The position numbers and the translations under genes are program-made. Positions 3,721 through 32,000 of a stretch of DNA of 32,000 nucleotides are shown piece by piece. The stretch lies in assembly GCA_965224465.1 (NCBI GenBank), contig OZ245049.1:3870001-3902000 (forward strand), read 5' to 3'. This stretch comes from Flavobacteriaceae bacterium. Lineage in GTDB: Bacteria; Bacteroidota; Bacteroidia; Flavobacteriales; Flavobacteriaceae. Each line of letters opens with the position of its first letter. Within the stretch, counting starts at the first letter, position 1. The notes beneath the pieces are model-generated. The model made no database searches. It was not told the DNA's origin and was given only the letters and a program-made list of their open reading frames with translations.

Positions 3721-3841
3721 CTGATTGCTATTTATGTAAAGATAATTATTTTACGTAAAATTTACGTTTATTATTTAGATGATTTTCATCGAATTTAATT
3801 TTCAGAAATATTCTTTACTTTTAAGCAGGTGCTAAGTGTAC

Positions 3842-4002
3842 TACCAACTACATTTCCAAGTAACGGTTTAGAAATGGAATTATTTTTTGTTATAGCTAGG
3901 CGAAAAATGGAAGGATAGCCTTCGCTATGGTTCTGTTTTTTCAACAACGCTAGAACGTGAAATAACCTATTTATATCGGTTATTTTGGATTGTAGTTGGT
4001 AT
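3842..4002 (+). repeat. Intergenic hairpin repeat, long form (~160 bp), tandem copy 1
   Basis: Structure is taccaactacatttccaagtaacggtttagaaatgg... central module gctaggcgaaaaatggaaggatagccttcgctat...cgctagaacgtg ... atcggttattttggattgtagttggtat. Track ORF 3795..4010 lies inside it and is discounted. Confidence 0.9.
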
Positions 4003-4003
4003 A

Positions 4004-4164
4004 ATACCAACTACATTTTCAAATAATGGTTTAGAAATGGAATTATTTTTTGTTATAGCTAGGCGAAAAAGGGAAGGATAGCCTTCGCTATCGTTCTGTT
4101 TTTTAGCGACGCTAGAACGTGAAATCACCTATTTATATCGGTTATTTTGGATTGTAATGGGTGT
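4004..4164 (+). repeat. Intergenic hairpin repeat, long form, tandem copy 2
   Basis: Near-identical to 3842-4002 and follows it head-to-tail, separated only by about 1 nt. The right terminus is slightly degenerate (attgtaatgggtg). Confidence 0.9.
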
Positions 4165-4341
4165 AAATGTGACGGATTTTTATCTTTTGTGTCTTAAATA
4201 TAAAGATAAGGGTTTGTTGCAAGTTGTTAGATATTGAATTAGTAAGATAATAAGGATAGATGTTGAAGGTTGTCTGACAGCTTGTAATTTTAACATATAG
4301 TCGTTCCCAAGTAAATTTTTGTACTATTTTCTTTTAAAGAC

Positions 4342-4369
4342 AAAAAGGACTGCAGAAGCAGTCCTTTTT
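4342..4369 (-). terminator. Bidirectional-looking hairpin terminator downstream of gpmI
   Basis: Hairpin ggactgc-agaa-gcagtcc flanked by aaaaa and ttttt. Confidence 0.65.
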
Positions 4370-4487: not shown

Positions 4488-6008
4488 TTAAATTAACGAA
4501 CTTCTCGTCATTTCTTTTGGTTGTGCTACGCCCATTAATTTTAATATAGTAGGTGCAATATCACCTAGAACACCATCTTTGATTTGTGTAAGTTCTTTGT
4601 CTACTAGAATCATAGGTACAGGGTTTGTTGTGTGTGATGTATGTGGTGTTCCATCAGGATTCATCATTGTTTCACAATTCCCATGATCTGCTATAATAAT
4701 AGTTGTATAGTCGTTTTTGATAGCGCTATTTACAACATCTTCTACACATTTATCTACGGTTTCACATGCTTTAATTGCAGCGTCCATGATTCCGGTATGC
4801 CCTACCATGTCTCCATTGGCAAAGTTTAAACATACAAAATCCACTTCTTTTTTGTCTAGTTCTGGAATAATTGCGTCTCTAAGTTCAAAGGCACTCATTT
4901 CTGGTTGCATGTCATATGTAGCAACTTTAGGAGAGTTTCTTAAGATTCTAGATTCTCCTTTAAATTCTTTTTCACGACCTCCAGAGAAGAAAAAGGTAAC
5001 ATGTGGATATTTTTCTGTTTCTGCAATACGAATTTGTTTCTTATTTGCATTTGATAATACTTCACCTAAGGTGTTTTCTAAATTATCGTTTGTGTAAATT
5101 ACATGCAGTCCTTTGAATGTTTCATCATACATTGTCATTGTAACATAATGTAGCGGAATGGTTTCCATATCAAATTCAGGAAAGTTGTTTTGTGTCAACA
5201 CATCTGTCAATTCACGTCCTCGATCTGTTCTGTAGTTGAAGAAAATAACAACGTCGTCCTTTGCGATAGATGCTTTAGGCTTCCCGTCTGCATTCGTCAT
5301 AATTATTGGCTGGATAAATTCATCCGTAACACCTGCTTCATAACTTTTTTTAATGCTTTCAACAGCATTTGTAGAGGATGTTCCTATTCCTTTTACTAAG
5401 GCATCATACGCTATTTTTACTCGTTCCCAGCGTTTGTCTCTGTCCATGGAAAAATAGCGCCCCGTGATTGTAGCGATACTTCCCGTTGTTTTTTTCATGT
5501 GCTCTTCGATCTCATTGATAAAGTAGCCTCCCGATTTTGGGTCACAGTCACGTCCATCTGTAAAAGCATGTACAAATACGTTTTCCGCACCTTGTTCACT
5601 AGCAACATCCAATAGTCCTTTTAGGTGATTGATGTGGGAGTGGATTCCTCCATTAGAAACCAATCCTAATAAGTGAATGTTTTTATTGTTTTCTTTAGCG
5701 TATGCAATAGCATCTTTCAATACTTTTTCTTGCCCCAAAGTCTTTTCTTCAACAGCTTTGTTGATTTTTACTAAGTTTTGATATACAATACGTCCAGCAC
5801 CTAAATTCATGTGGCCTACTTCTGAATTTCCCATCTGACCTACAGGAAGTCCTACATGTTCTCCATCAGTTCGAAGGCTAGCATTTGCGTATTTTTTGTA
5901 TAAATTATCGATAAATGAAGTGTTGGCCTTAAATACTGCCGAAACTTTTGGGTCTTGTGTAATTCCCCATCCGTCTAATATCATTAAGATTACTTTCTTA
6001 GTCATCAT
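4488..6008 (-). CDS. gpmI: 2,3-bisphosphoglycerate-independent phosphoglycerate mutase
   Basis: 506-aa ORF with characteristic iPGM motifs: ILDGWG, NSEVGHMNLGAGR, GGIHSH, FTDGRD, NFANGDMVGHTG, ADHGN. Confidence 0.97.
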   Translation of the reverse strand: MMTKKVILMILDGWGITQDPKVSAVFKANTSFIDNLYKKYANASLRTDGEHVGLPVGQMGNSEVGHMNLGAGRIVYQNLVKINKAVEEKTLGQEKVLKDAIAYAKENNKNIHLLGLVSNGGIHSHINHLKGLLDVASEQGAENVFVHAFTDGRDCDPKSGGYFINEIEEHMKKTTGSIATITGRYFSMDRDKRWERVKIAYDALVKGIGTSSTNAVESIKKSYEAGVTDEFIQPIIMTNADGKPKASIAKDDVVIFFNYRTDRGRELTDVLTQNNFPEFDMETIPLHYVTMTMYDETFKGLHVIYTNDNLENTLGEVLSNANKKQIRIAETEKYPHVTFFFSGGREKEFKGESRILRNSPKVATYDMQPEMSAFELRDAIIPELDKKEVDFVCLNFANGDMVGHTGIMDAAIKACETVDKCVEDVVNSAIKNDYTTIIIADHGNCETMMNPDGTPHTSHTTNPVPMILVDKELTQIKDGVLGDIAPTILKLMGVAQPKEMTRSSLI

Positions 6009-6030
6009 AAGTTGTTGTTTTAAAAGTATA

Positions 6031-6038
6031 CAAAGATA
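6031..6038 (-). promoter_or_regulatory. -7 promoter box (TATCTTTG on minus strand) for gpmI
   Basis: caaagata on the plus strand, 23 nt upstream of the gpmI start. Matches TAnnTTTG. Confidence 0.45.
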
Positions 6039-6089
6039 CTAAGAACTCAAATGCCACCCTCTTTTGTATTCCTCTTATTGATTAAAAAT

Positions 6090-10900: not shown

Positions 10901-11047
10901 GGAATTGTTTTTTATGTACTTATTGCGAGGCTATGCCGAAGCAATTTGACTTGTTTGATGCAATTCTGAACGCCATCCTCATCTATTCTGGGCAGCGTTC
11001 TTTGCAATAATTCGATTTGTCTCGCAATGTCAAAGTCTTGTGTCTCA

Positions 11048-13672
11048 CTATTCACTAAGATACTCAATTGCTTTTTCCAATGCAGCAGGGATCCCAGCAG
11101 GATTTTTACCGCCAGCAGTAGCAAAGAAAGGTTGGCCACCGCCGCCTCCATGAATCAGTTTTCCGAGTTCTCGAACTACGGTTCCAGCGTGTATATCGCT
11201 TGATTTTGCTAATGCCTTAGAAACAAAACAAGTCAACATTGCTTTTCCGTCTTTTTCAGTCGCGGCTAAGAAAAATAAATTATCTACTTCGCTTCCTATT
11301 TCAAACAGTAAATCTTTAATATTACTTTGGTCTAGATCAAGTTTTTTAGCGATAAAATTGATGCCATTTACGGTTTTAATTTCTTGAATTAAAGTGCCTT
11401 TTAAATGGGTTGCTTTTTGTTTTAATAAGCTTTCTACTTGTTTTTTAAGTGTGGAGTTTTCCTCTTGTAATGATTTCACATTTTTGATTGGAGCATCATT
11501 GTTTTTGAACAGGTCTTTAATTTCCACATAATCTCTTGTGTTATTAAAGAAGAACGTTTTACTAGCTTCGGCAGTAATGGCTTCGATACGTCTAATTCCA
11601 GCAGCAACACCCCCTTCTGAAGTGATTTTAAAATGCCAAATGTCACTGGTGTTTTGTACGTGGATACCTCCACATAATTCCATGGATTGACCAAAGCGGA
11701 TGGCGCGTACTTGATCGCCGTATTTTTCGCCAAATAACATGATAGCGCCTTCTTTTTTTGCGTCTTCTATAGGGATATTTCTAAATTCTTCTAGGGGTAG
11801 TTTCCCTGTAATACGTGCATTTACAAAATCTTCAATTTCTAAAATTTCGGTATTGGTCAATTTGGCAAAGTGAGAAAAATCAAAACGTAAGTTTTTGGCA
11901 TTTACAGAAGAACCTTTTTGTTCGATATGTTCTCCTAAAATGGTTCTTAAAGCTTGGTGTAATAAATGCGTTGCCGTATGATTACAAGCACTTAAAAAAC
12001 GTTGATTTTTATCTACAACTACATGTAGCTTTTCTGTAATCGTATTTGGTAGGTGTTTTGTGAAATGTATGATGAGGTTGTTTTCCTTTTTCGTGTCAAT
12101 AATGTAAATAACATCACTATTAGGAATCTCTATATATCCTTTACTTCCTGCTTGTCCACCTCCTTCTGGGTAAAAGGGCGTTTTATCAAACACAAGTTGG
12201 TACATGTCGCCTGCTTTTTTAGTGGAAATTCTTCTGTATCGGAGTACTTTTACATCTGCTTTTGTAGTGTCATACCCAATAAATTCAGCATCTAAAGTAT
12301 CATCTAGAATCACCCAGTCATCAGTTTCTATGGTAGAAGCTGCTCTAGAGCGTGTTTTTTGTTTTTGAAGTTCTTCATTAAACGTTTTTTCATCCAAGGA
12401 CAATCCTTTTTCAGAAAGAATTAAAGCGGTTAAATCTATTGGGAAACCGTAGGTGTCGAACAATTCAAAAGCTTTTTTTCCAGAAACTTCGTTGCCCTTA
12501 GTGCCGTCAATAATTTTGTCTAATAAAATAAGTCCTTGCCCTAATGTACGTAAAAAAGAGGCTTCTTCTTCTTTTATTACATTGGTTACTAGTTGTTTTT
12601 GAGTGACTATTTCTGGGAATGTTTCTCCCATTTGATGGCTCAATACTTCAACCAATCTGTAAATAAATGGTTCTTTTTGATTCAGAAATGTAAAACCATA
12701 ACGGACAGCACGTCTTAAGATACGACGGATTACATATCCAGCTCCTGTATTAGAAGGTAGCTGACCATCGGCAATAGCAAAAGCCACGGCGCGCACGTGA
12801 TCCGAAATAACGCGGATAGCAATGTCAGATTTTTCACTGTCCTCTCCCTGTTCATAAACCGTATTTGTAATGGTTTCTACTTCTCTTATTAAAGGGCTGA
12901 AAACATCGGTATCGTAGTTGGATTGTACCTTTTGCATTACCATGCATAAACGTTCAAATCCCATTCCTGTATCTACGTGTTGTGCAGGTAAATCTTCGAG
13001 ACTTCCGTTTGCTTTTCTGTTAAATTGCATAAATACCAAGTTCCAGATTTCAACCACTTGTGGGTGGTCCATATTTACTAGTTCACGACCAGGTACTTGT
13101 GCTTTTTCTGCTGCAGAACGTATGTCAACATGTATTTCAGAACAAGGGCCACAAGGTCCCTGAGCACCCATTTCCCAAAAGTTGTCTTTTTTGTTTCCTA
13201 AAATTATTTGATTTTCTGGAACAATGTTTTTCCATAAGTCATACGCCTCTTGGTCAAAAGCTAGATTTTCGTCTTTGGCTCCTTCAAAAACAGAAACGTA
13301 TAAGCAGCTTTTATCTATTTCTAAGACATCTGTCAAAAATTCCCACGCCCATTCGATGGCTTCTTTTTTGAAGTAATCACCAAAACTCCAGTTTCCTAAC
13401 ATTTCGAACATAGTATGGTGGTAAGTATCCATACCTACCTCTTCTAAATCGTTGTGTTTTCCAGAAACTCGCAAACATTTTTGAGTATCAGATACACGTT
13501 TGATTTCGATTTTTCGTTGCCCTAAAAAGAATTCTTTGAACTGATTCATTCCTGCATTGGTAAACATCAATGTAGGATCATCTTTTATAACTATTGGAGC
13601 AGAGGATACTAACGTATGTTGTTTTGACTTAAAAAAATCTAAAAATTGCTTTCTTACTTCTTGTGATTTCAT
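11048..13672 (-). CDS. alaS: Alanine--tRNA ligase
   Basis: 874-aa ORF with class II AlaRS motifs: [28 protein letters not shown]. The editing domain shows [12 protein letters not shown] and CGGIHV, and the C-terminal DHHA1 region shows GGGGGQP. Confidence 0.98.
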
Positions 13673-13927
13673 AAATGATATTCATTATTCCTACTTTTTA
13701 GGTAGGTTTCGGAACATATCCGAGTGTTACTGTGTTGATGCTATTGTTTATCTTGTCAGATTAAGGATGTGAAGCCCTAATGTCATATGAAATAAACGTT
13801 AATTTCCTATTAAAAAACAAAAGCGAATGTTCGGTTCTAAAACATTTTGTATTTTTGTATTTAATGATCAAAGCAATATTAAATTAAATGACTACTTTTA
13901 ATATGCGAAAATAATATAAATTATACA

Positions 13928-14899
13928 ATGGCAAAAGTAAAATATTATTATGACTCTGAAACCTTATCTTATCGAAAAATAAAGGATAAAAAGAGACACA
14001 AGTTTGCGAGATTAGGATTGACTATTGTTACAGCTGGTATTTTTATGGTACTTGGTTTTGTTGTGCTTACCCCTGTTTTTGAGTCGCCTAACGAAAAGAA
14101 ATTGAAACGAGAATTGGAATATGTAAAACTCAATGAAGAATTACATGGAAAAAAACTGGTTCAATTAGAAAAAGTTTTAGAAGATTTACAAGTAAGAGAT
14201 AACAATATTTACCGTGTTTATTTTGAATTGAATCCTATTTCAAATGATAAAAAGGCAGCAGGGTTTGGAGGAGTGAATCGGTATAAATCATTGGAAGGAT
14301 TTGATAATTCTGAAATGATAATTGGAGTTTCTAAGAACATGGATATTTTGGCAAAACAATTGTACATGCAGTCAAAATCCTTAGATGAAATTGTTAGTTT
14401 GGCAGAGAAAAAAGAAGAGTTATTAGCCGCTATGCCAGCAATCCAACCTGTTAGGAAAGAAAATTTGACACGCATGGCTTCTGGGTACGGATGGCGTTCT
14501 GACCCGTTTACAAAGGCTCGGAAAATGCATAAAGGAATGGATTTTACAGCTCCTAGAGGTACTCCTGTGTATGCCTCTGGTGATGGGGTAGTTGTGAGAG
14601 CTGATAATAATTCTAGTGGATATGGAAAACACATTCGTATAAATCACGGATTTGGCTATTTATCCTTGTACGCGCATTTAAGTAAATACAATACAGTAAA
14701 AGGAAAGCGTGTGAAACGTGGTGATTTAATCGGGTTTGTAGGGAATACAGGACGGTCTCAAGCACCTCATTTACATTATGAAGTACATAAAAATGGAAAG
14801 GCAATTAATCCTATCAATTTTTATTCAGGTAATTTAACTCCCGAAGAATTTGTGGCCATGCAAAAAGCAGCACAAATAGAAGGACAATCTTTAGACTAA
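13928..14899 (+). CDS. M23-family metallopeptidase
   Basis: 323-aa ORF with an N-terminal TM helix, a coiled-coil region, and LytM-type motifs HKGMDF, GYG..I.I.H and HLHYEV. Confidence 0.92.
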   Translation: MAKVKYYYDSETLSYRKIKDKKRHKFARLGLTIVTAGIFMVLGFVVLTPVFESPNEKKLKRELEYVKLNEELHGKKLVQLEKVLEDLQVRDNNIYRVYFELNPISNDKKAAGFGGVNRYKSLEGFDNSEMIIGVSKNMDILAKQLYMQSKSLDEIVSLAEKKEELLAAMPAIQPVRKENLTRMASGYGWRSDPFTKARKMHKGMDFTAPRGTPVYASGDGVVVRADNNSSGYGKHIRINHGFGYLSLYAHLSKYNTVKGKRVKRGDLIGFVGNTGRSQAPHLHYEVHKNGKAINPINFYSGNLTPEEFVAMQKAAQIEGQSLD

Positions 14900-15231
14900 T
14901 GCTGATAGACCTTCCAGAAAAACGCTATTATAAAATAGGAGAAGTAGCAAAGGCTTTTAATGTAAACACTTCCTTGATTCGCTTTTGGGAAAAAGAGTTT
15001 GATGCTTTAAAACCTAAAAAAAATGCCAAAGGAAATCGTTTATTTACGAAGGATGATGTTAAAAATCTAGAATTGATTTATAATTTAGTAAAAGAGAGAG
15101 GCTTTACCTTGGAAGGTGCAAAAAATAAGTTAAAAAAACAACCTAATAAAACGGTGCACAACCATGAAATAGTTTTGAGATTGGAAAAAATTAAAGCAGA
15201 ATTGATAACCATAAAAAATCAATTGTCTTAG
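14899..15231 (+). CDS. MerR-family transcriptional regulator
   Basis: 110-aa ORF with the HTH YYKIGEVAKAFNVNTSLIRFWEKEF. Its start overlaps the M23 stop (TAATG), which suggests coupling. Confidence 0.88.
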   Translation: MLIDLPEKRYYKIGEVAKAFNVNTSLIRFWEKEFDALKPKKNAKGNRLFTKDDVKNLELIYNLVKERGFTLEGAKNKLKKQPNKTVHNHEIVLRLEKIKAELITIKNQLS

Positions 15232-15305
15232 GATTTCTTAGGGAAGATGTAACTACTTTCGTTTTTTTGGGTCTTATAAAATAAATCAATTAAAATAAAA
15301 TAATT

Positions 15306-23253: not shown

Positions 23254-23270
23254 TTTCAGTATTTAAAATG

Positions 23271-23278
23271 CAAAGATA
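23271..23278 (-). promoter_or_regulatory. -7 promoter box (TATCTTTG on minus strand) for era
   Basis: caaagata on the plus strand, 18 nt upstream of the era start. Confidence 0.45.
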
Positions 23279-23342
23279 CTATTTATTCAAATTTTAATGA
23301 CGAAAAAAAATAAAAAATGGCATTAGAATTAAATAAAGGTTG

Positions 23343-23350
23343 TACCTTTG
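23343..23350 (+). promoter_or_regulatory. -7 promoter box (TACCTTTG) for the tRNA
   Basis: Matches TAnnTTTG and ends 10 nt before the first tRNA nucleotide. Confidence 0.5.
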
Positions 23351-23360
23351 CAACCGAAAT

Positions 23361-23433
<73 letters not shown>

Positions 23434-23442
23434 CTAAGCGGA

Positions 23443-23474
23443 AAGCTTCATCATAAAGATGGAGCTTTTTTTTT
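23443..23474 (+). terminator. Rho-independent terminator after the tRNA
   Basis: Stem agcttcatc / gatggagct (one G-U pair) followed by a 9-nt T-run. Confidence 0.7.
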
Positions 23475-23677
23475 GTCCATTATTTGCCTTTATAATAATC
23501 GAAGCTATCATCCCTTTTTTTTTATTCCTCTTGATTCATTTTTTACGCACCTATATTTTTTTTACGGGTATTTGTAGGTACTTCGCTCCTCTAAATAATA
23601 AATAAAATAAAAGGTTTTTAAGATGTGGTTTTTTAGGTGAAAAACACTTATTAAAAACCATGCTCAAAAATGCGCAT

Positions 23678-23730
23678 TATACCAACTTCATTTCCAGGTG
23701 ACAGTTTGTAAATGGAATTATTTTTTATTC
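23678..23730 (+). repeat. Hairpin repeat, left arm only (outer copy, 5' part)
   Basis: tataccaacttcatttccaggtgacagtttgtaaatggaattattttttattc stops where the central module would begin. Confidence 0.75.
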
Positions 23731-23891
23731 TACCAATTAAATTTCCAAGTGACGGTTTAGAAATAGAATTACTTTTTTGTTCTAGCTAGGCGGAAAATGG
23801 AAGGATAGCCTTAGCTATCGTTCTGTTTTTCAACAACGCTAGCACGTAAAATAGACTATTTATATCTGTCATTTTGGATTTTAATTGGTAG
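23731..23891 (+). repeat. Hairpin repeat, full long form (inner copy)
   Basis: taccaattaaatttccaagtgacggtttagaaatag...gctaggcggaaaatggaaggatagccttagctatcg...cgctagcacgt...tatctgtcattttggattttaattggtag. Confidence 0.85.
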
Positions 23892-24001
23892 TATAGCTAG
23901 GCGAAAAATCTTAGGGTAGCCATTAGCGATCGTTCTATTTCTATCAACGCTAGAACATATAATAAACTATTTAGATCTGTTATTTTGTATTGTAGTTGGT
24001 T
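23892..24001 (+). repeat. Hairpin repeat, central module plus right arm (outer copy, 3' part)
   Basis: tatagctaggcgaaaaatcttagggtagccattagcgatcg...cgctagaacat...atctgttattttgtattgtagttggtt. Joined to 23678-23730 it reconstitutes a full long-form copy. Confidence 0.75.
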
Positions 24002-24351
24002 GTACGTAACGAATTATAGTTTTAAGCGATAAAAACAGCTCCTAAAAAGTATCTAGTTCTGAATTATATTTTTTCCATGCATTGCCATCTTAAGGTAACG
24101 GTTTTTAAGGAGTACAAAAAAAGGAAAACACAACCAAATAATAATTATCGCATATAACTATTTTACGTACATTTGAAAAATGCTTTAGGTATGTGCAGAT
24201 AAATACTAATACCCAAATGCTACAACATCCCACGCAATAGAATGCACCATCATATTTGGGGCTGCTATTGTGGGAGCATGAGTGTTCTAGGTAATTTGAC
24301 TCACTCAAAATGTATAAACGAAACAGAAAACCAACTAGAAAATAGAAAATT

Positions 24352-25050
24352 ATGGCAGGAAAACCAGCAGCAACTGTAGGAAGTAATCATTCTTGCCCAA
24401 TGTGTAGTGGTATTACGCCGCACGTTGGTGGTCCGATTACTCAAGGCTCTCCAGATGTTTTTATTAATGATAAACCAGTGGCTCGTATCGGGGATATATG
24501 TACTTGTAATGGAGGTCCAGATACCATTGTGACAGGGAATTCAACCGTGTTAATTAATGGATTACCTATTGCTTGTGTAGGTGATCAAACTTCTCACGGG
24601 GCTGTTATAATTTCGGGCTCTTCTAACGTTATTATCGGAAGTAGAACCTCTAAGCCTGCAACCGCAGTGATGGCAGTAAAAAAAATACCTTTCCCTAAAA
24701 TCACATTTATAAACAGAGTTTTGGGTAATGCAAAAGAAGCGATTGTGAATCAGCAAGCCATAAGAGAATTAGCAGAAAACACAGAAGGCGAACCTAGAGT
24801 GTACAATTTACGTTGGCGTAGAGAAGAAACCATTATACGAGATCGTAAAATTTTTAATATGGTGATTTTAACTGCTGACGTAATTAATATCCCTGACGGT
24901 CAGGCAGCTACTGTCAAAGTATTAAAGCCTTCGAGCAACGGAAATGAAGAAGATCAAGTTGTTGAACTTACAGGAACTGTTAAAAATAAAAGAATTACCG
25001 TAGAATGGGAATTGGAAGACGCGAGTGCTAACGAAAACAGCAATAACTAA
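24352..25050 (+). CDS. PAAR-domain protein with ~130-aa C-terminal extension
   Basis: 232-aa ORF whose first ~98 aa carry three PAAR-type repeats (KPAATVGS, KPVARIGD, LPIACVGD) with Cys/His (HSCPMC, CTC, SHG). The remainder has no recognisable motif. Confidence 0.88.
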   Translation: MAGKPAATVGSNHSCPMCSGITPHVGGPITQGSPDVFINDKPVARIGDICTCNGGPDTIVTGNSTVLINGLPIACVGDQTSHGAVIISGSSNVIIGSRTSKPATAVMAVKKIPFPKITFINRVLGNAKEAIVNQQAIRELAENTEGEPRVYNLRWRREETIIRDRKIFNMVILTADVINIPDGQAATVKVLKPSSNGNEEDQVVELTGTVKNKRITVEWELEDASANENSNN

Positions 25051-25053
25051 ACT

Positions 25054-28000
25054 ATGGAAAGAAACAAGGCTCTCGAAACTTACCAAAAAGAAGCTTACAA
25101 TCAAGATCTAGCTACCTATACTTTTACAGTAGAAGTAGCAGGGAAGACATCTGATGAACGAGCAGAATTAAAAGTGAAAAAACCAGGTATTAATTTACAC
25201 TTTTTAAGGTATGGTATTTTTAGTCCACGATGGTATTATAAAACATCTTTTATTGATGTACATGCTCCAAATCTAAGTAAACCCTACGAACCTTTTCCCG
25301 TAGATAATGATCCTGAACTTATAAACCCCAACGACCCCATAGAACTTGATGAGGTTTTTGTAACAGCTGAAAGAAAAGTTCCTGCTCCATCAAGTAAAGC
25401 AAGTAAACTAAATACAGCACAGTATCGAATTACAGGAATCAATGAAGGTTATATTTATGTTCACGAAGAAGGTAAAGAAAACTTTTGGTTAGAATTTGCT
25501 GTAGATATTTATGGTTTTTTGCATCCTATTTTATGGGAACAAAATATAAATAAAGATGGAACATATAAAGATATAAGAGAGAAAATAAGTGATAAAAATC
25601 TTACCTCATACATCATAAAGGAAGGTGCAAAAATATGGGTTACATTATCTCAATCTCAATTGTCTACAAAACAATTACAAGAATATGCTAATAATCCAGA
25701 TAATTTTGATAGGCTACAATCCTTAACTTGTAATCCCATTGAAAAAATATCTGATTTAACAGAACGTAAAGAAAAATGCTATAGGTCCTTTAAAGAATTT
25801 ACTGCCTCATATACTGTTTATGAAGAAGACAATGCTAAAATATTACAATCTAGATTAGAACATATTTCAAAATTAGAATATCCTGAAAATAGAGAAGAAG
25901 AAGATGCTACCTTTGAAGACCTGTTTATTCTTTTAGAAGACCCCGTACAGTGTGCTAATGATTTAGCTACCGTTATTGATGGAGAAATGGCATGGTTAAA
26001 AGCTTTGAAGGATACTTTAAAAATAGGGAAATCTGCTTATGACGTGTATGATAAATTAATGAAGTTACCTGTTTATAATAATAGTACTATTAAAGTATCG
26101 CCAGAAGAAGCCGAAGAAATTAGCTATATTTTTGCATTAGCACTTACTACCTATAAGTTTATTTATGATAATGAAGAATTAAAAGACGATTTTAGTCGAA
26201 AACATGGTGAATGGTATTTAAATCGTGGCATAGATGACGAAAAACTAGACAAAATATTAGGGATTACACAGCGTAAAAATCAGCGTTGCCTAATCAATAA
26301 ATTGCGTGATGATTTAGGTAATTTTTTGAAAAGTGAGTATTATAACACTGCACTTAATGACTTTAAGCAAGGGTCATACCCAATGAAAGAAAGTGGTAAA
26401 GATATTATTGCTGGTCATTTAGGAACACTAGTAGTACACCCTACTATGGTAGATAGGCATTTATTGCTAACCAGTGAATACAAACCCTACGAAGATAAAT
26501 GGATAAAACAAGTACGTAAAACCATTACAGGGAATAGTGATTTTACAGCAATAAATGAACTTTTAAATATCCGTATTCCTATTAATGAGGTTGAACAACA
26601 AGATAGCAATGCTAATATTTATGCAGTCAAATTTTGTAAAAAATTCTTAAGCCATTTTGGTAAAATGACCAAAGCGTACATTGGGGTTGGCGCATTAAGT
26701 GCTACCGAAATTAAATTGGTAGACACTAAAGTAAACTATTTAAATTCCATTTCTAAAGGTGGAAAAGAAGGTCCTTTTTTTAAGATAAACCGCAAAGATT
26801 TTTTAAGAACTGCTGGTTTTGAAAAATATAAAAAGTACAGAAGTAGCAGTCACAACCACTTTACTAAAACCTATGCTTTTTTAAAAATACATGAAGAGGT
26901 ATTAAAAGAAAGTAAAGATATTGCACGTAGAACAGGTTTGGGAAAAGAAACTTCCATTGTGGTACAAGGGCGTGATCGTTTGAAGTTTTCTAAACAGCTA
27001 GAAAAAATGGTGCAAAGCCCTGAGTATAAATCGGCAGTACTCGTTTTTGAAATTTGGGCGCTTATCTCTTCTGTAGAGAAAGGAAATAAAAATGGATGGG
27101 GTTTAAATTCGAAAATAAGCCTTGGAGGAGCAATTGTAAAAACTACTGCGTCGAGTTTGAAGCTAGTTGAAGAATTTGATAAAATAAGAGGAATACAAAG
27201 AACCGATTTATTTAAAACTACAACTAAATATTTTAGTGTGGCAGGTTCCGCTTTTACAGTCTATTCAGCAACCAAAGATATGGTAAAAGCAATAAATGTC
27301 AATGATAATGATGCTGCATTGGCTTATAGTGTAGCTGCAGGGATTAGTGGGTGTTTATTAGCGGCAGAATTAGGCATTATAGCTCTTTCTACAGGGCCAT
27401 TTATTGTAGTAGCAGGTATTGGGATGCTGGTCTATGGTTTAGCTTATTATTTAACCGATAGTGATTTGGAACAATTTTTTAAGCATTACCCTTTTAGTAC
27501 CCAAATGACACATGCTACTACAAGTGATAATCCTTTTTTGTATGCGCGTGCAATGTATAAGCAACGTGATATACTTATTAAACGTTGGGAGTCTAAATAT
27601 ATGGATAGTAATAATAATACATACAAGCATCTTTTTGTAAGACTCACTAATTTATTAGCTGGAGGTATGCTTAAAATAGAAGGTAGTTCAAATCCACACT
27701 CTAAAAATGATAGAGGACATTATTTAAGTGAATCCGGGAGAAATAATGGAATTGTTCCAAATTCAGAGCTTTGGATTTCTATGGATATCCAAATCTCTTT
27801 TGCATCCTTTTTGCAAAACCAAAATCAAATTGAATATGAAGTGTACTTACTACAGAAAAAAGACCTTTTTTCTAAAACCATAAGTTACCGTATTCCCAAT
27901 AGAAAATTACAACCCTTTATGATAAAAAAAGATAATGGGACGCAACAACTGCAATTATGGTTACAAATCCCTAGATACTTAGAAGTTAAAGTTACAACAC

Positions 28001-28287
28001 CTGTAAAACAATCTGCCAATATTTCGGTTATGCTACAACAAACCCGTAAAACTACTAAAAAAGTAACTATACAACCAGATGCGAAAATTGCAGTATTGTG
28101 CAAATTTAAAGGGAATACAGAAACAATTTTCCCTTTAACACTAGACGATAAACACGGATATTTATACACCGCTATGCAAATAGGACAACGTAATGGTGAT
28201 GGTTATTTAATCCGTCGTTCTTTTGATGCCATGATTATTAAAAAAGAAGCCTTTTTAAATGCCTACCCACTTCAAAACCCTAAGTAA
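25054..28287 (+). CDS. Large putative T6SS-delivered effector, predicted membrane-targeting; function unknown
   Basis: 1077-aa ORF starting 3 nt after the PAAR stop. Hydrophobic helices cluster at aa ~660-800, including AALAYSVAAGISGCLLAAELGIIALSTGPFIVVAGIGMLVYGLAYYL. I could find no nuclease, lipase (GxSxG), peptidase or glycosidase motif. The N-terminal YRITGINEGYIYVHEEG...WLEF segment is reminiscent of VasX/BTH_I2691-class effectors, from memory and unverified. Confidence 0.75.
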   Translation: MERNKALETYQKEAYNQDLATYTFTVEVAGKTSDERAELKVKKPGINLHFLRYGIFSPRWYYKTSFIDVHAPNLSKPYEPFPVDNDPELINPNDPIELDEVFVTAERKVPAPSSKASKLNTAQYRITGINEGYIYVHEEGKENFWLEFAVDIYGFLHPILWEQNINKDGTYKDIREKISDKNLTSYIIKEGAKIWVTLSQSQLSTKQLQEYANNPDNFDRLQSLTCNPIEKISDLTERKEKCYRSFKEFTASYTVYEEDNAKILQSRLEHISKLEYPENREEEDATFEDLFILLEDPVQCANDLATVIDGEMAWLKALKDTLKIGKSAYDVYDKLMKLPVYNNSTIKVSPEEAEEISYIFALALTTYKFIYDNEELKDDFSRKHGEWYLNRGIDDEKLDKILGITQRKNQRCLINKLRDDLGNFLKSEYYNTALNDFKQGSYPMKESGKDIIAGHLGTLVVHPTMVDRHLLLTSEYKPYEDKWIKQVRKTITGNSDFTAINELLNIRIPINEVEQQDSNANIYAVKFCKKFLSHFGKMTKAYIGVGALSATEIKLVDTKVNYLNSISKGGKEGPFFKINRKDFLRTAGFEKYKKYRSSSHNHFTKTYAFLKIHEEVLKESKDIARRTGLGKETSIVVQGRDRLKFSKQLEKMVQSPEYKSAVLVFEIWALISSVEKGNKNGWGLNSKISLGGAIVKTTASSLKLVEEFDKIRGIQRTDLFKTTTKYFSVAGSAFTVYSATKDMVKAINVNDNDAALAYSVAAGISGCLLAAELGIIALSTGPFIVVAGIGMLVYGLAYYLTDSDLEQFFKHYPFSTQMTHATTSDNPFLYARAMYKQRDILIKRWESKYMDSNNNTYKHLFVRLTNLLAGGMLKIEGSSNPHSKNDRGHYLSESGRNNGIVPNSELWISMDIQISFASFLQNQNQIEYEVYLLQKKDLFSKTISYRIPNRKLQPFMIKKDNGTQQLQLWLQIPRYLEVKVTTPVKQSANISVMLQQTRKTTKKVTIQPDAKIAVLCKFKGNTETIFPLTLDDKHGYLYTAMQIGQRNGDGYLIRRSFDAMIIKKEAFLNAYPLQNPK

Positions 28288-29018
28288 TGAGTGATTTTTG
28301 GAAAAATAAACCTTTAGAAAAGGAGATACGTCATCAAATAGAGTATCACCAAATAAAACAAGAACGAATAAAGCCTAGTAAACGTTTAAATATACAAGAA
28401 GCAAATGACCTATTTTTTGTTAGGAATGTATCTAGTAATATGGGCTATGCCAAGATAAATTTTTTAACAGGTGTAGGTATTAATTTTATTATTATATTAG
28501 TTTCTCTAGGAAATGAAAAAGATGACCTTTTTGAGAATATAGGCTTAGGACTACTACCTTTCTTATTAATAAGCCTTATTTTTCTAATCATACATTTTAT
28601 GGCGCCAATAAAAGAAATAATATTAGACCGTTTACATGGCAAAATAACGTATCCTCGTTTGTTTGGTAATAAAGAACATCGTACCATACAATTTGATTCG
28701 TTGCACGTGTATGCTACTATGACCACCACTGGTGATTTTGCTGCGACAGGAAAAACAATACGTATTAAAGACAGAAAGTACAGTTATACGTGGGATTTAG
28801 AAAGTAGTAATCCAGATGAATATTGGAGTTTTATGGTGTGGTATATGGATAGGAACAGACCATTGCCTCCTGGTACTGCTTTTGATGCGTATAGGAAAAA
28901 GGACTTTGAGCGCAGAAAAACCGCTGGATTTCCTAAGCCTTTATATCCAAGCAATATAGCAACACCTGAATTTACCAAATCGCAACAAAAAGAACGGAAA
29001 TTAATTGGAGGATGGTAA
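28287..29018 (+). CDS. Putative cognate immunity protein, two-TM (paralog 1)
   Basis: 243-aa ORF whose ATG overlaps the effector stop (TAATG). Two hydrophobic helices sit at aa ~58-75 and ~85-105. The conserved C-terminal ~135 aa has no recognised motif. The immunity role is inferred from position only. Confidence 0.7.
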   Translation: MSDFWKNKPLEKEIRHQIEYHQIKQERIKPSKRLNIQEANDLFFVRNVSSNMGYAKINFLTGVGINFIIILVSLGNEKDDLFENIGLGLLPFLLISLIFLIIHFMAPIKEIILDRLHGKITYPRLFGNKEHRTIQFDSLHVYATMTTTGDFAATGKTIRIKDRKYSYTWDLESSNPDEYWSFMVWYMDRNRPLPPGTAFDAYRKKDFERRKTAGFPKPLYPSNIATPEFTKSQQKERKLIGGW

Positions 29019-29027
29019 TAAAATCGC

Positions 29028-29235
29028 ATGCAAAAATTGCCGTATTATGTAAGTTTAAAGGAAATACAGAAACTATTTTTCCTTTAACATTAGACGATAA
29101 GCAGGGTATTTATACACCGCTATGCAAATAGAACAACGCAATGGTGATGGTTATTTAATTCGTCGTTCTTTTGATGCCATGATTGTCAAAAAAACAGCCT
29201 TTTTAAATGCCTACCCACTTCAAAACCCAGAATAA
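29028..29235 (+). pseudogene. Orphan effector 3' fragment, frameshifted
   Basis: Homologous to 28078-28287 (last ~70 codons of the effector). A 1-nt deletion (gataagcagggtattt versus gatgagcacgggtattt in the next unit) breaks the frame. Confidence 0.8.
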
Positions 29236-29966
29236 TGAGTGATTTTTGGAAAAACAAACCTTTAGAAAAAGTGATACGTCACCAAATAGAGTATCACCAA
29301 ATAAAACAAGAGCGAGTAATACCAAACAAGCGCTTAGAAATACAAGAGGCAAATGACCTGTTTTTCGTAAAAAATGTATCAAGTTATATTTCTGGAGCTA
29401 AGTTGTATTTTTTTTTAGGTTTGGGTATAGTTATATTTGTTTATTTGATTACAATAGGCATGCCTAAAGAAAAAATATCATTTCCTCGATATTTAGGGTT
29501 GATTCCTTTTTTATGTATAAGTCTTATCTATTTGATTATGCATTATATGGCGCCAATAAAAGAAATAATATTAGACCGTTTACATGGCAAAATAACGTAT
29601 CCTCGTTTGTTTGGAAATAAAGAACATCGTACCATACAATTTGATTCGTTGCACGTGTATGCTACCATGACCACCACTGGTGATTTTGCTGCGACAGGAA
29701 AAACAATACGCATTAAAGACAGAAAGTACAGTTATACATGGGATTTAGAAAGTAGTAATCCAGATGAATATTGGAGTTTTATGGTGTGGTATATGGATAG
29801 GAACAGACCATTGCCTTCTGGTGCTGCTTTTGATCCGTATAGGAAAAAGGACTTTGAGCGCAGAAAAACTGCGGGATTTCCTAAGCCTTTATATCCAAGC
29901 AATATAGCAACACCTGAATTTACCAAAGCGCAACAAAAAGAACGGAAATTAATTGGAGGATGGTAA
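29235..29966 (+). CDS. Putative immunity protein paralog 2
   Basis: 243-aa ORF. Its C-terminal half is near-identical to paralog 1, its N-terminal ~44 aa are moderately conserved, and aa ~45-105 are divergent. Confidence 0.7.
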   Translation: MSDFWKNKPLEKVIRHQIEYHQIKQERVIPNKRLEIQEANDLFFVKNVSSYISGAKLYFFLGLGIVIFVYLITIGMPKEKISFPRYLGLIPFLCISLIYLIMHYMAPIKEIILDRLHGKITYPRLFGNKEHRTIQFDSLHVYATMTTTGDFAATGKTIRIKDRKYSYTWDLESSNPDEYWSFMVWYMDRNRPLPSGAAFDPYRKKDFERRKTAGFPKPLYPSNIATPEFTKAQQKERKLIGGW

Positions 29967-30184
29967 TAAAATTGCATGCAAAAATTGCCGTATTATGTAA
30001 GTTTAAAGGAAATACAGAAACTATTTTTCCTTTAACACTAGATGATGAGCACGGGTATTTATACACCGCTATGCAAATAGAACAACGCAATGGTGATGGT
30101 TATTTAATTCGTCGTTCTTTTGATGCCATGATTGTCAAAAAAACAGCCTTTTTAAATGCCTACCCACTTCAAAACCCAGAATAA
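29960..30184 (+). other. Orphan effector C-terminal fragment, open 74-codon ORF
   Basis: MVIKLHAKIAVLCKFKGNTETIFPLTLDDEHGYLYTAMQIEQRNGDGYLIRRSFDAMIVKKTAFLNAYPLQNPE matches the last ~70 aa of the 1077-aa protein. The ATG arises from the gga-tgg-taa end of paralog 2. Expression is doubtful. Confidence 0.5.
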
Positions 30185-30563
30185 TGAGTGATTTTTGGAA
30201 AAACAAACCTTTAGAAAAAGTGATACGTCACCAAATAGAGTATCATCAAATAAAACAAGAACGTATAAAACCTAATAAACGCCTAGAGATACAAGAAGCT
30301 AACGATCAATTTTTTGTAACAAATGAAACAGAAGCATTAACCGCTTTTTGGTGCTATTTTAGTATGGGTGTGGGAGGGGTGTTTTTTTTAATTATCGTAC
30401 AATACTTTGGTGTTGGGTTTGTTAATATGGTTACTTTATGGATAGGATTACCTTTTGTTTTATTAGCTTTATTTCATTTAATCATATTCTTTTTAGTACC
30501 AATAAAAGAAATAATATTAGACCGTTTACATGGCAAAATAACGTATCCTCGTTTGTTTGGTAA
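30184..30563 (+). pseudogene. Immunity paralog 3, 5' part, disrupted by IS30-family insertion
   Basis: Reads MSDFWKNKPLEKVIRHQ...ITYPRLFG and then runs into the IS (KLNSSHKRNF stop, track ORF 30184..30594). Confidence 0.85.
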
Positions 30564-31688
30564 GCTGAATTCAAGTCACAAACGCAACTTTTAGTTAAAT
30601 AATAATTGTTCCATTACAAATATAGGGTTTTGATATTTATGTCTCTTCCTAGGTCTGTTATTTAATTTTGTTTCTACCTCTTTGATTCTTTGATCTGTTA
30701 GGTTTGTAAAGTCACTTCCTTTGGCAAAATATTGTCTAATCAAACCATTTAAATTTTCGTTAGATCCTCTTTCCCAAGAGTGATATGGATGCGCAAAAAA
30801 GTAATCAATACATAAATTTTCTGCAACCTGCTCATGGCCTGCAAATTCTTTTCCATTATCAGCTGTTATAGTATGTAGATAAGGCTTCCAGTCTTCTAAT
30901 ATTTCATTGATAGCTTTAGTGACAACAACTGCTTCTTTAGAGCTTACTTTTTTCATTTTAAGCATTCCAGAAGCTCTATCATTTACGGTAAGTATGGCTT
31001 GATTATGGTTTTTACCTATGATTAAATCGACCTCTAAATCTCCAAATCGATTTCTTTGTTCAACAACTTCAGGGCGTTGTTCTATACTAATACGATTCTT
31101 TATAACCCCTCTAGAATCCTTTGATGAGCCACGTTTTCTATATCTCCTTCCCTGTCTGCGAAGGTGTGTATGTAAATCACCATCATTCCTCTTGTCTTCC
31201 CTAATATGCTGATATATACGCTCAATAGACACCGTTTCTTTACCTTGTTTTTTTAGGACACCAACTACTTGCTCAGGACTATAATCGTCTCGCAATAACA
31301 ACTCTATTGCTTGTTGAATATCTTCTGTAAAGCGTTTTCTTTTAGGCTTTTCTTTATGACGTTTAGCATACTTTTTTTGGGCTAATTCATGCTTGTAAAC
31401 TCCATTTCTTTTGTCTGAATTACGCTTAATCTCTTTGCTAATAACAGACTTGTCTTTTCCTATAGCAGCTGCTATCTCAACCTGTTTATAACCTTGTTTT
31501 AACATGCAACAAATTGTGTATCTTTGCGCTTGGGTGATGTGTTTCATACAACTTCTTTTTTCGAGATTTGAGACCGTAAGATACATATCCATCAAGACAA
31601 GAAAGGTAGGTTTTCCTACTTTTCTGTTTTGAAAATATAACCATCATAGAATCAAATCGAAAAGTTGCGTTTATTAGTTGAATTTAAG
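30564..31688 (-). mobile_element. IS30-family insertion sequence (1125 bp)
   Basis: Imperfect 29-bp terminal inverted repeats: gctgaattcaagtcacaaacgcaactttt at the left end and aaaagttgcgtttattagttgaatttaag at the right end, 23/29 matching. TAA is duplicated at 30561-30563 and 31689-31691. Removing the IS and one TAA restores ...ttt ggt aat aaa gag cat..., the sequence of the intact paralogs. Confidence 0.9.
30591..31547 (-). CDS. IS30-family transposase
   Basis: The N-terminal HTH is MKHITQAQRYTICCMLKQGYKQVEIAAAIGKDKSVISKEIKRNS and a DDE-type catalytic core follows (DLIIG...TADNGKEF...SWERGSNEN). The track ORF extends to 31595, but I prefer the ATG at 31547. Confidence 0.88.
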   Translation of the reverse strand: MKHITQAQRYTICCMLKQGYKQVEIAAAIGKDKSVISKEIKRNSDKRNGVYKHELAQKKYAKRHKEKPKRKRFTEDIQQAIELLLRDDYSPEQVVGVLKKQGKETVSIERIYQHIREDKRNDGDLHTHLRRQGRRYRKRGSSKDSRGVIKNRISIEQRPEVVEQRNRFGDLEVDLIIGKNHNQAILTVNDRASGMLKMKKVSSKEAVVVTKAINEILEDWKPYLHTITADNGKEFAGHEQVAENLCIDYFFAHPYHSWERGSNENLNGLIRQYFAKGSDFTNLTDQRIKEVETKLNNRPRKRHKYQNPIFVMEQLLFN

Positions 31689-32000
31689 TAATAAAGAGCA
31701 TCGTACCATACAATTTGATTCGTTGCACGTGTATGCTACCATGACCACCACTGGCGATTTTGCTGCGACAGGAAAAAAAATACGCATTAAAGACAGAAAG
31801 TACAGTTATACATGGGATTTAGAAAGTAGTAATCCAGATGAATATTGGAGTTTTATGGTGTGGTATATGGATAGGAACAGGCCATTGCCTCCTGGTACTG
31901 CTTTTGATCCGTATAGGAAAAAGGACTTTGAGCGCAGAAAAACCGCGGGATTTCCTAAGCCTTTATATCCAAGCAATATAGCAACACCTGAATTTACCAA
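31689..32000 (+). pseudogene. Immunity paralog 3, 3' part (continues past window end)
   Basis: In-frame continuation NKEHRTIQFDSLHVYATMTTTGDFAATGKKIRIKDRKYSYTWDLESSNPDEYWSFMVWYMDRNRPLPPG..., near-identical to paralogs 1 and 2. Confidence 0.85.

Follow-up and report, generated by a model that had tools for sequence, protein, structure and literature searches.

Toxin-gene stubs in a tandem array of predicted immunity genes behind a VasX-like effector in a marine Flavobacteriaceae genome

Why should each spare immunity gene of a bacterium be preceded by a stub of the toxin gene's end, and what does such a stub reveal about the way in which immunity arrays arise, a matter still debated between duplication and repeated acquisition? 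We addressed this question in a 32,000-nt stretch of DNA (hereafter the window) from a Flavobacteriaceae bacterium (NCBI GenBank assembly GCA_965224465.1, contig OZ245049.1, positions 3,870,001 to 3,902,000 of the forward strand). Judged from its sequence, the locus at the end of the window is the tail of a PAAR/VasX-like effector/immunity operon followed by an array of immunity genes of the same family, in a marine, Aquimarina-like member of the Flavobacteriaceae. It is an unusually clean case, in which duplication and acquisition are both readable. We propose, with a probability of roughly 0.7, that a unit composed of an effector stub and an immunity gene had a single origin and was amplified, that its backbone has been homogenised and its central cassette exchanged horizontally, that the head of the operon was replaced, and that the stubs are passengers.

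A repeated unit of stub and immunity gene

The features on which the argument turns are the following, with the means by which each was recognised.

28078..28287, plus strand: 3' end of the resident effector gene, residues 1009-1077 plus stop, the segment that recurs as stubs (repeat search, alignment)
28287..29018, plus strand: immunity gene 1, 243 aa, with its variable region at codons 45-105 (28419-28601) (open reading frame, alignment)
29019..29026, plus strand: 8-nt linker TAAAATCG from the immunity gene 1 stop to stub 2, a unit junction (read from the alignment)
29027..29235, plus strand: stub 2, effector 3' end put out of frame by the loss of 1 nt between 29103 and 29104 (alignment)
29235..29966, plus strand: immunity gene 2, 243 aa, with its variable cassette at about 29373-29551 (open reading frame, alignment)
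29967-29974, plus strand: 8-nt linker TAAAATTG before stub 3, the same junction (alignment)
29960..30184, plus strand: stub 3, an intact 74-aa open reading frame whose effector homology spans 29975-30184 (open reading frame, alignment; catalogued protein P0121)

A repeat search revealed three in-register copies with start-to-start distances of 948 and 949 nt, an array to which Tandem Repeats Finder is blind, its maximum period being 500. The repeating element is the entire 948-nt unit, the stub being one part of it: each unit of 948/949 nt consists of an 8-nt linker, the last 210 nt of an effector gene and a 732-nt immunity gene for a protein with two predicted transmembrane helices, and in a three-way alignment homology begins 8-9 nt past each immunity stop codon. 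Adjacent immunity genes lie 216-217 nt apart, and 210 nt of that distance is toxin-gene remnant. The open reading frames (ORFs) overlap at their edges. The effector stop and the immunity gene 1 ATG share the sequence TAATG, the ATG of stub 3 overlaps the immunity gene 2 stop (ATGGTAA), and the stop of stub 3 overlaps the immunity gene 3 ATG (TAATG again).

A preliminary description of this stretch had reported that the last ~210 nt of the effector gene recur before immunity paralogs 2 and 3, and we find them there, at 29027-29235 and 29975-30184. It had put the stubs at roughly 20-25 differences in ~210 from the resident end and at a handful from each other. Our measurements agree: the resident end differs from stub 2 by 21-22 mismatches and one 1-nt deletion and from stub 3 by 23 mismatches in a gapless alignment, and the two stubs differ from each other by 3 mismatches and a 1-nt indel. 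The stubs are thus far from equidistant (3 differences between them versus 22-23 to the resident), and their identity to the resident end, ~90% over 210 nt, is far above chance. What the stub holds, effector residues 1009-1077, includes neither the hydrophobic region of the toxin (755-802) nor its allele-variable patch (672-725). The frameshift in stub 2, the splitting of immunity gene 3 described below, the further paralogs and stub ORFs on the contig and the mosaicism of the immunity genes had not been seen in the preliminary description.

How far does the array extend? The third immunity gene is interrupted, and its parts fill the remainder of the window.

30184..30563, plus strand: immunity gene 3, 5' part, codons 1-126, cut by an insertion sequence (alignment, frame)
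30564..31688, minus strand: IS30-family insertion sequence, 1125 bp, with its transposase at 30591-31595 on the minus strand (NCBIfam, inverted repeats, target duplication)
31692..32000, plus strand: immunity gene 3, 3' part, which leaves the window ~40 nt short of its stop (97% identity to unit 1, 28666-28978)

The element has all the hallmarks of its family: a transposase (NCBIfam NF033563, transpos_IS30, 290.7 bits against a cut-off of 80), terminal inverted repeats of 25 nt with 88% identity, and a short target duplication, TAA, at 30561-30563 and 31689-31691. The limits of the element were set by inspection of the sequence. Its excision in silico, joining 30563 to 31692, puts immunity gene 3 back in frame, and the insertion looks recent because the gene is otherwise intact. 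On the 5.24-Mb source contig, five distinct immunity paralogs are catalogued (P0001, P0261, P0113, P0002 and P0025), together with three distinct 74-aa stub ORFs (P0121, P0262 and P0263), all of which begin with the junction-encoded MVIK and carry the same stub-specific residues. The array therefore probably comprises at least five units, three of them within the window, and runs beyond position 32000.

Could such regularity be an artefact of assembly, a duplicated or mis-joined contig? Nothing but the regular period could hint at one. The products of the array are separately catalogued proteins on a single contig, and the units are too unlike each other, with ~50% divergence in their central 200-250 nt and one of them carrying an insertion sequence with its target duplication. 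Because of this central divergence, of the insertion sequence with its duplication and of comparable arrays in independent assemblies of other genomes, we take an artefact to be excluded, its residual chance being close to nil, and the array to be genuine, as the preliminary description had assumed.

Descent of the stub lineage

From what did the stubs descend? We polarised the differences with full-length effector 3' ends as outgroups, first seven and then ten. Between the resident end and stub 3, 18 of the 23 differences arose on the stub lineage, and the five changes on the resident lineage are all synonymous. The stubs thus form a lineage of their own and are not fresh copies of the resident gene, as had been suspected. 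On this lineage 7 of the 18 changes are nonsynonymous, versus a neutral expectation of 12.6-14.3 obtained by random substitution of the inferred ancestor (P <= 0.004 for a transition bias of 1 to 8), and 11 of the 18 fall at third codon positions (P = 0.014). The corresponding ratio of nonsynonymous to synonymous change (dN/dS), estimated from counts, is about 0.2; for two working alleles, that of the window and that of the related locus L002, it is about 0.25, a rough value based on 7 amino-acid changes among 16 differences. Because of the nonsynonymous deficit and of a dN/dS near that of the working alleles, the stub lineage seems to have diverged mostly under selection inside a working effector. 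These data support the descent of the stubs from another working effector allele, one that we infer rather than see. The earlier suggestion that the stubs are relics of a different allele gains a signature of purifying selection in this way, and no full-length carrier of the allele was found to go with it.

A simpler history would be a plain in-place tandem duplication of the last 210 nt of the resident effector together with the immunity gene, followed by neutral drift and requiring no second allele. The stubs do lie nearer to the resident end (22-23 differences) than to the other sampled alleles (27-55), and the concentration of 18 of the 23 changes on their lineage is as expected without constraint. 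Moreover, the amino-acid changes in the stubs all fall at residues that are invariant or nearly so in full-length alleles, and the resident's 5 synonymous changes over ~50 synonymous sites predict ~21 changes per 207 nt, close to the 18 observed. The same 18 changes, however, contain too few nonsynonymous ones (7 against 12.6-14.3, P <= 0.004) and too many at third codon positions (11, P = 0.014) for unconstrained sequence, and drift in place cannot yield cassettes 97-98% like those of other genomes with flanks 80% identical (see below). We therefore consider this history unlikely. Derivation of the stubs from an effector of the L002 type, whose immunity gene 1 shares the cassette of immunity gene 2, was also tried and rejected, the stubs being 27-30 differences from that effector versus 22-23 from the resident.

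The stub-specific residues are QIEQ, MIVKKT and NPE, and an effector of this type would end in ...QIEQRNGDGYLIRRSFDAMIVKKTAFLNAYPLQNPE. Several searches bear on its whereabouts. A scan of a genome collection, in which the source genome is not included, returned seven loci; a metagenome scan with the stub peptide returned a single locus, 69% identical, and the stub-specific residues turned up in no allele there. A protein search with the C-terminal 78 aa of the resident effector returned only the stub ORF cluster, which is not evidence of absence, and one with the C-terminal 577 aa returned at least five proteins, which is likewise not evidence that relatives are absent: such word-indexed searches with the effector C-terminus missed relatives of 75-84% identity that other approaches brought to light.

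The derived residues are common to all four stubs, the junctions in the window are identical and the additional stub ORFs start with MVIK. Because derived residues and junction are shared in this manner, the unit appears to have been made once and then amplified, or else to have been thoroughly homogenised.

Might the stub ORFs have been kept because they are useful? The 74-aa peptide could have a role of its own, or translation could pass ribosomes along the array via the ATGGTAA/TAATG overlaps; three of the four stubs are intact, their starts and stops overlap the neighbouring genes, and a stub-lineage dN/dS of about 0.2 would suit a translated peptide. Stub 2, however, is frameshifted while immunity gene 2 is intact, four related loci have 35-nt spacers without an ORF, and the stub peptide matches no NCBIfam family. 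Nor are intact ORFs surprising, since 18 random substitutions leave no stop in 40-63% of simulations and an in-frame ATG supplied by the junction alone is a one-in-three chance. A function for the stub ORFs thus strikes us as very improbable. The stubs have, in addition, been considered as promoters and rejected: sigma-70-like sites are no commoner in them than in shuffled sequences, and a scan of stubs and linkers found no Bacteroidetes-type TAnnTTTG box.

Mosaic immunity genes and the history of the array

Sliding identity along the aligned units reveals a mosaic. In the stub zone units 2 and 3 are 98-100% alike and unit 1 is ~90% identical to either, a pattern that continues through the first 50-60 nt of the immunity gene. 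From about 28350 to 28600 identity falls to 40-60% for every pair of units, and from 28600 to the end of the unit it stands at 97-98% for all pairs. The proteins tell the same story. Over residues 106-230 the five paralogs share 97-99% identity with each other, and no foreign protein exceeds 87%. Over residues 45-105, where the two hydrophobic helices lie, identity within the genome is 45-63%, and the best match of each paralog is in another genome (97% for L002, then 87%, 84%, 75% and 70%).

The clearest case is that of immunity gene 2 and immunity gene 1 of L002. Over the cassette, codons 45-105, they differ at 6 of 183 nt (3.3%), versus 28 of 132 and 78 of 414 nt in the flanks (19-21%; Fisher p = 6e-9), and synonymous differences are depleted in the cassette too. 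The synonymous depletion together with the low divergence indicates that this cassette moved horizontally, and recently, rather than having been conserved as protein. The array would combine a concertedly evolving backbone with the exchange of a short specificity cassette, and the two-helix cassette probably sets specificity.

Homologous recombination clearly shapes the array, as the preliminary description had proposed for the stubs acting as direct repeats. The part assigned to the stubs has to be reduced. The near-identical contiguous block measures ~740 nt and comprises the immunity 3' half, the linker, the stub and the immunity 5' end; the stub contributes just 210 nt to it and is not the main substrate, the immunity 3' halves alone providing 420 nt at 97-98% identity.

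Exchange with foreign alleles calls to mind the sequential displacement described for Vibrio cholerae, in which each incoming pair would have left behind the 3' end of the prior effector with its immunity gene, each stub being a relic of the matching effector. The variable regions of the paralogs do group with foreign alleles, the criterion that Kirchberger et al. used against duplication, and a shifted-back effector 3' end has been noted in the same study (PMC5361080). L002 offers a complete displaced module, which retains its promoter-proximal region and has suffered an internal deletion. The grouping holds here for the central region (70-97%) and is reversed for the 3' half (97-99% within the genome, <=87% to foreign proteins). 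Independent displacement events should, moreover, vary in their breakpoints and leave stubs as unlike as the alleles themselves (16-55 differences per 207 nt among full-length alleles), whereas here a single junction recurs: it is identical at both sites in the window, two further stub ORFs start with MVIK, and only 3 nt distinguish the stubs, whose derived residues are all shared. Displacement survives only with later gene conversion that erased the differences, in which form it merges into the history that we favour. As an explanation in its own right we rate it a shade below in-place duplication.

Unit 1 holds a further clue. Its ~10% divergence continues without interruption across the effector 3' end and the initial 50-60 nt of immunity gene 1 but does not reach the conserved 3' half, in which identity among all units is 97-98%. 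Because the divergence spans the gene boundary and ends in this way, replacement of the operon head is the simplest account of it.

Based on these observations, how would the array have come about? In the single-origin history, one pair of breakpoints, 210 nt inside an effector allele and 8 nt past an immunity stop codon, would have created the unit of stub and immunity gene once. The stub would have been left because the upstream context of the immunity gene lies inside the effector, where an immunity-sparing duplication or deletion would end. The unit would then have been amplified by unequal homologous recombination, and gene conversion would keep its ~740-nt backbone near-uniform within the genome. 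The central cassette of about 180-250 nt, encoding two helices and differing by about half between units, would be exchanged across lineages via its conserved flanks. The resident effector, together with the immunity gene 1 5' part, would belong to an allele lineage distinct from the array backbone, ~10% diverged from it; homologous recombination would have replaced the operon head (effector, immunity gene 1 5' end and cassette), crossing over on the right within the half of immunity gene 1 that is conserved. The resulting array would shield the cell against several allelic variants of a putative pore-forming effector deployed by neighbours. Because one of the stubs is frameshifted and the toxic and variable parts of the effector are missing from them, the stubs would be passengers that merely lengthen the homology available for recombination and that, here, also link the ORFs in a chain of overlapping stops and starts.

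Several points weigh against this history. A full-length effector with QIEQ, MIVKKT and NPE was found in none of the searchable collections, which makes the donor a hypothetical allele. For the branching order of the resident, stub and L002 effector ends, the shared derived sites number 3, 2 and 2, respectively, too even a count to favour one arrangement. The synonymous excess on the stub lineage could reflect selection on the 74-aa stub ORF, three of four copies of which are intact. Gene conversion and the repeated import of whole units predict similar patterns in the one genome analysed. The paralogs and stub ORFs additional to those of the window are placed in the array by the shared contig and by the MVIK start. 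Finally, the 32,000-nt window holds no structural gene of a type VI secretion system (T6SS).

A more far-reaching reading is tentative, and we regard it as possible rather than likely. The array may be a recombination-maintained library of immunity specificities, in which the ~740-nt uniform backbone, stub included, provides portable homology arms, ~180-nt transmembrane-hairpin cassettes are captured from foreign DNA and shuffled between units, and the stub ORFs chain the genes by overlapping stops and starts on one transcript. If true, the library would be a record of the effector variants met in the environment, akin to the silent cassettes of antigenic variation.

The effector module, its relatives and known immunity arrays

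The array stands behind a module whose genes are given here.

24352..25050, plus strand: PAAR-domain protein, 232 aa, which opens the module (Pfam PAAR_motif, E = 1e-26, 93 bits against a cut-off of 27)
25054..28287, plus strand: T6SS effector, 1077 aa, VasX/BTH_I2691-like, a putative membrane-active toxin (domain matches, hydrophobic segments)
27067..27228, plus strand: allele-variable effector patch, residues 672-725, outside the stub (comparison of six full-length alleles)

Effector residues 113-217 match the VasX N-terminal domain (Pfam PF20249, VasX_N, 41.9 bits against a gathering score of 27). VasX and TsiV2 make up one of the effector-immunity modules of V. cholerae. Residues 648-817 match the BTH_I2691 family (NCBIfam NF041559, E = 2.6e-16) with 59 bits, under the cut-off of 150, and hydrophobic segments lie within residues 755-802. 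Relatives of the effector fall into 139 representative clusters; searches of the PDB with the effector and with the immunity protein returned no relatives. The immunity protein has two hydrophobic segments and matches no Pfam family, and its 674 homologues come almost all from Aquimarina, Cellulophaga, Tenacibaculum and related Flavobacteriaceae. The 243-aa downstream genes are taken to be immunity genes from their position and topology only. The order PAAR, effector, immunity recurs in the related loci L002, L003, L015, L016 and L017. The genes upstream of the PAAR gene are housekeeping ones (alaS, der, era and others), which is why we regard the locus as an auxiliary effector module and not as a T6SS core cluster; in A. 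muelleri the homologous locus has a TssD gene nearby. At L003 a Tox-REase-5/Imm52 toxin-immunity pair (3113-4345) precedes the PAAR-effector module by ~1.5 kb, which suggests a toxin island.

Which part of the effector might the immunity proteins recognise? Among six full-length alleles the patch at residues 672-725 has a mean pairwise identity of 0.45-0.57 versus 0.7-1.0 elsewhere in the effector, which makes it a candidate immunity-recognition determinant. The patch sits between hydrophobic helices. Its divergence correlates with that of the variable region of the first immunity gene over 10 loci (Mantel r = 0.39, p = 0.005), the conserved half of the immunity gene being equally correlated (r = 0.37); with 7 loci the co-variation was non-significant (r = 0.29, p = 0.11). 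Co-variation of the patch with the first immunity cassette is thus weak and non-specific evidence.

In terms of expression, a scan of the array detected no terminator-like site and no Bacteroidetes-type -7 box inside it; one such box, TACATTTG, is located at 24168, 184 nt upstream of the PAAR gene. Module and array would thus be carried on a single transcript, and because of this the IS30 insertion should be polar on units 4 and 5. The ~1.1 kb upstream of the PAAR gene (23254-24351) contain no ORF of at least 100 aa, and a strong terminator-like hairpin at 23440-23470 closes the upstream convergent genes.

Are stubs found elsewhere? All the loci examined have the effector stop and the immunity ATG overlapping or no more than a few bases apart. 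Since this overlap puts any immunity-sparing breakpoint inside the effector, a stub of some length is nearly unavoidable, and remnants of different lengths occur in the related loci.

L001 (A. muelleri, 7 paralogs), L003, L008 and L017: 35-nt effector-end remnant, with the shared junction TGGTAA/TTTTAAA
L002: 80-nt effector-end remnant after 327 nt that duplicate, at 89.6% identity, the sequence immediately preceding PAAR, ATGG included
L004-L006: effector fragment, residues 710-1077 (about 1.1 kb), with an immunity gene, both located behind a different immunity array

The spacers of the 35-nt arrays are almost exact matches to the effector end of their own genome, which points to concerted evolution. 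At L001 four close paralogs are followed by three more distant ones (about 40% identity, 13075-15236), whose 22-41-nt spacers are not derived from the effector end. The structure at L002 is, by all appearances, a whole module minus PAAR and most of the effector, lost by internal deletion. Between the two immunity genes of that locus, 10867-11191 copies 5744-6069 and contains a TATCTTTG box, so that the orphan immunity gene may keep a promoter of its own; 11 nt separate the 327-nt copy from the 80-nt effector remnant, and a further 109-nt piece (11021-11129) matches 824-932 of the same locus. At L004 (709-10001) four or five 326-aa paralogs in tandem, ~41 nt apart, stand behind an 888-aa gene and look like an immunity-type array; next come a 507-aa ORF and then an immunity gene. 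In its C-terminal 368 aa the ORF matches effector residues 710-1077, its N-terminus is unrelated, and it recurs on two metagenome contigs (L005 and L006). Longer stubs were sought downstream of the effectors in L003, L008, L010-L013 and L015 and none was found. The 210-nt version so far appears unique to this genome.

How does the array compare with known systems? The preliminary description had likened it to the orphan toxin-tip/immunity modules of Rhs and contact-dependent inhibition (CDI) loci, reportedly described by Jackson in 2009, Poole in 2011 and Koskiniemi in 2014. The likeness extends to a 5'-truncated toxin fragment before each downstream immunity gene and to repeats shared with the main gene that permit recombination. 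It fails on the defining point. Rhs/CDI orphans retain the variable toxic C-terminal domain and a piece of the conserved core, so that recombination can install a new toxin; the stub here, the last 69 codons, encodes no toxic or variable part, and despite 90% homology over 210 nt a crossover within it exchanges no toxin-determining sequence and can affect the immunity array only.

A closer resemblance is to the orphan immunity arrays found downstream of T6SS effectors in V. cholerae, for which the displacement model was developed (Kirchberger et al. 2017, PMC5361080). In both cases several immunity genes line up behind an effector and point the same way, horizontal transfer has spread immunity alleles among strains and recombination has made mosaic clusters; one shifted-back effector 3' end is described there, and the effector here has a VasX N-terminal domain. 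The V. cholerae arrays, however, mix unrelated immunity families, a feature attributed to illegitimate insertions with varied outcomes (PMC5361080), whereas the present array has one paralog family, a strictly periodic unit, a single junction, a backbone homogenised within the genome and exchange restricted to a cassette of about 180-250 nt.

Homogeneous polyimmunity loci, in turn, are tandem paralogs in the same orientation, probably on one transcript and thought to protect against the toxins of non-kin (Zhang, Aravind et al. 2012, PMC3482391). With several paralogs of one immunity family in the same orientation (three in the window, five on the contig), our array resembles them. By that paper's account, however, neither toxin genes nor cassettes ever come between polyimmunity genes, which lie close together (PMC3482391), whereas here a 210-nt toxin remnant lies between the genes and the array stands directly behind a complete toxin gene; the sister arrays with 35-nt spacers fit that definition better. 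Finally, the acquired interbacterial defence (AID) clusters of gut Bacteroidales and their recombinase-associated counterparts (rAID) are orphan T6SS immunity arrays, for which duplication and repeated acquisition have both been discussed as origin (10.1101/471110; PMC12247911). They too are Bacteroidota arrays of T6SS-type immunity genes, but they reside on mobile elements or by recombinases, away from the toxin gene, whereas the present array is fused to its own effector operon and its only mobile gene is that of the IS30 element disrupting one unit. What is new in comparison with known arrays is thus the combination of a periodic single-junction unit, toxin remnants, a homogenised backbone and the apparent exchange of a short transmembrane cassette; it is not a new kind of system.

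What are the implications for the biology of these bacteria? The overlap of toxin and immunity genes offers a simple reason why toxin-gene stubs accompany orphan immunity genes, and the cassette mosaic is of more interest than the stubs themselves. Which bacteria survive contact-dependent attack is thought to depend on arrays of spare immunity genes, and swaps of the cassette would make this locus well suited to deciphering the recognition code that links a putative pore-forming effector to its membrane immunity protein.

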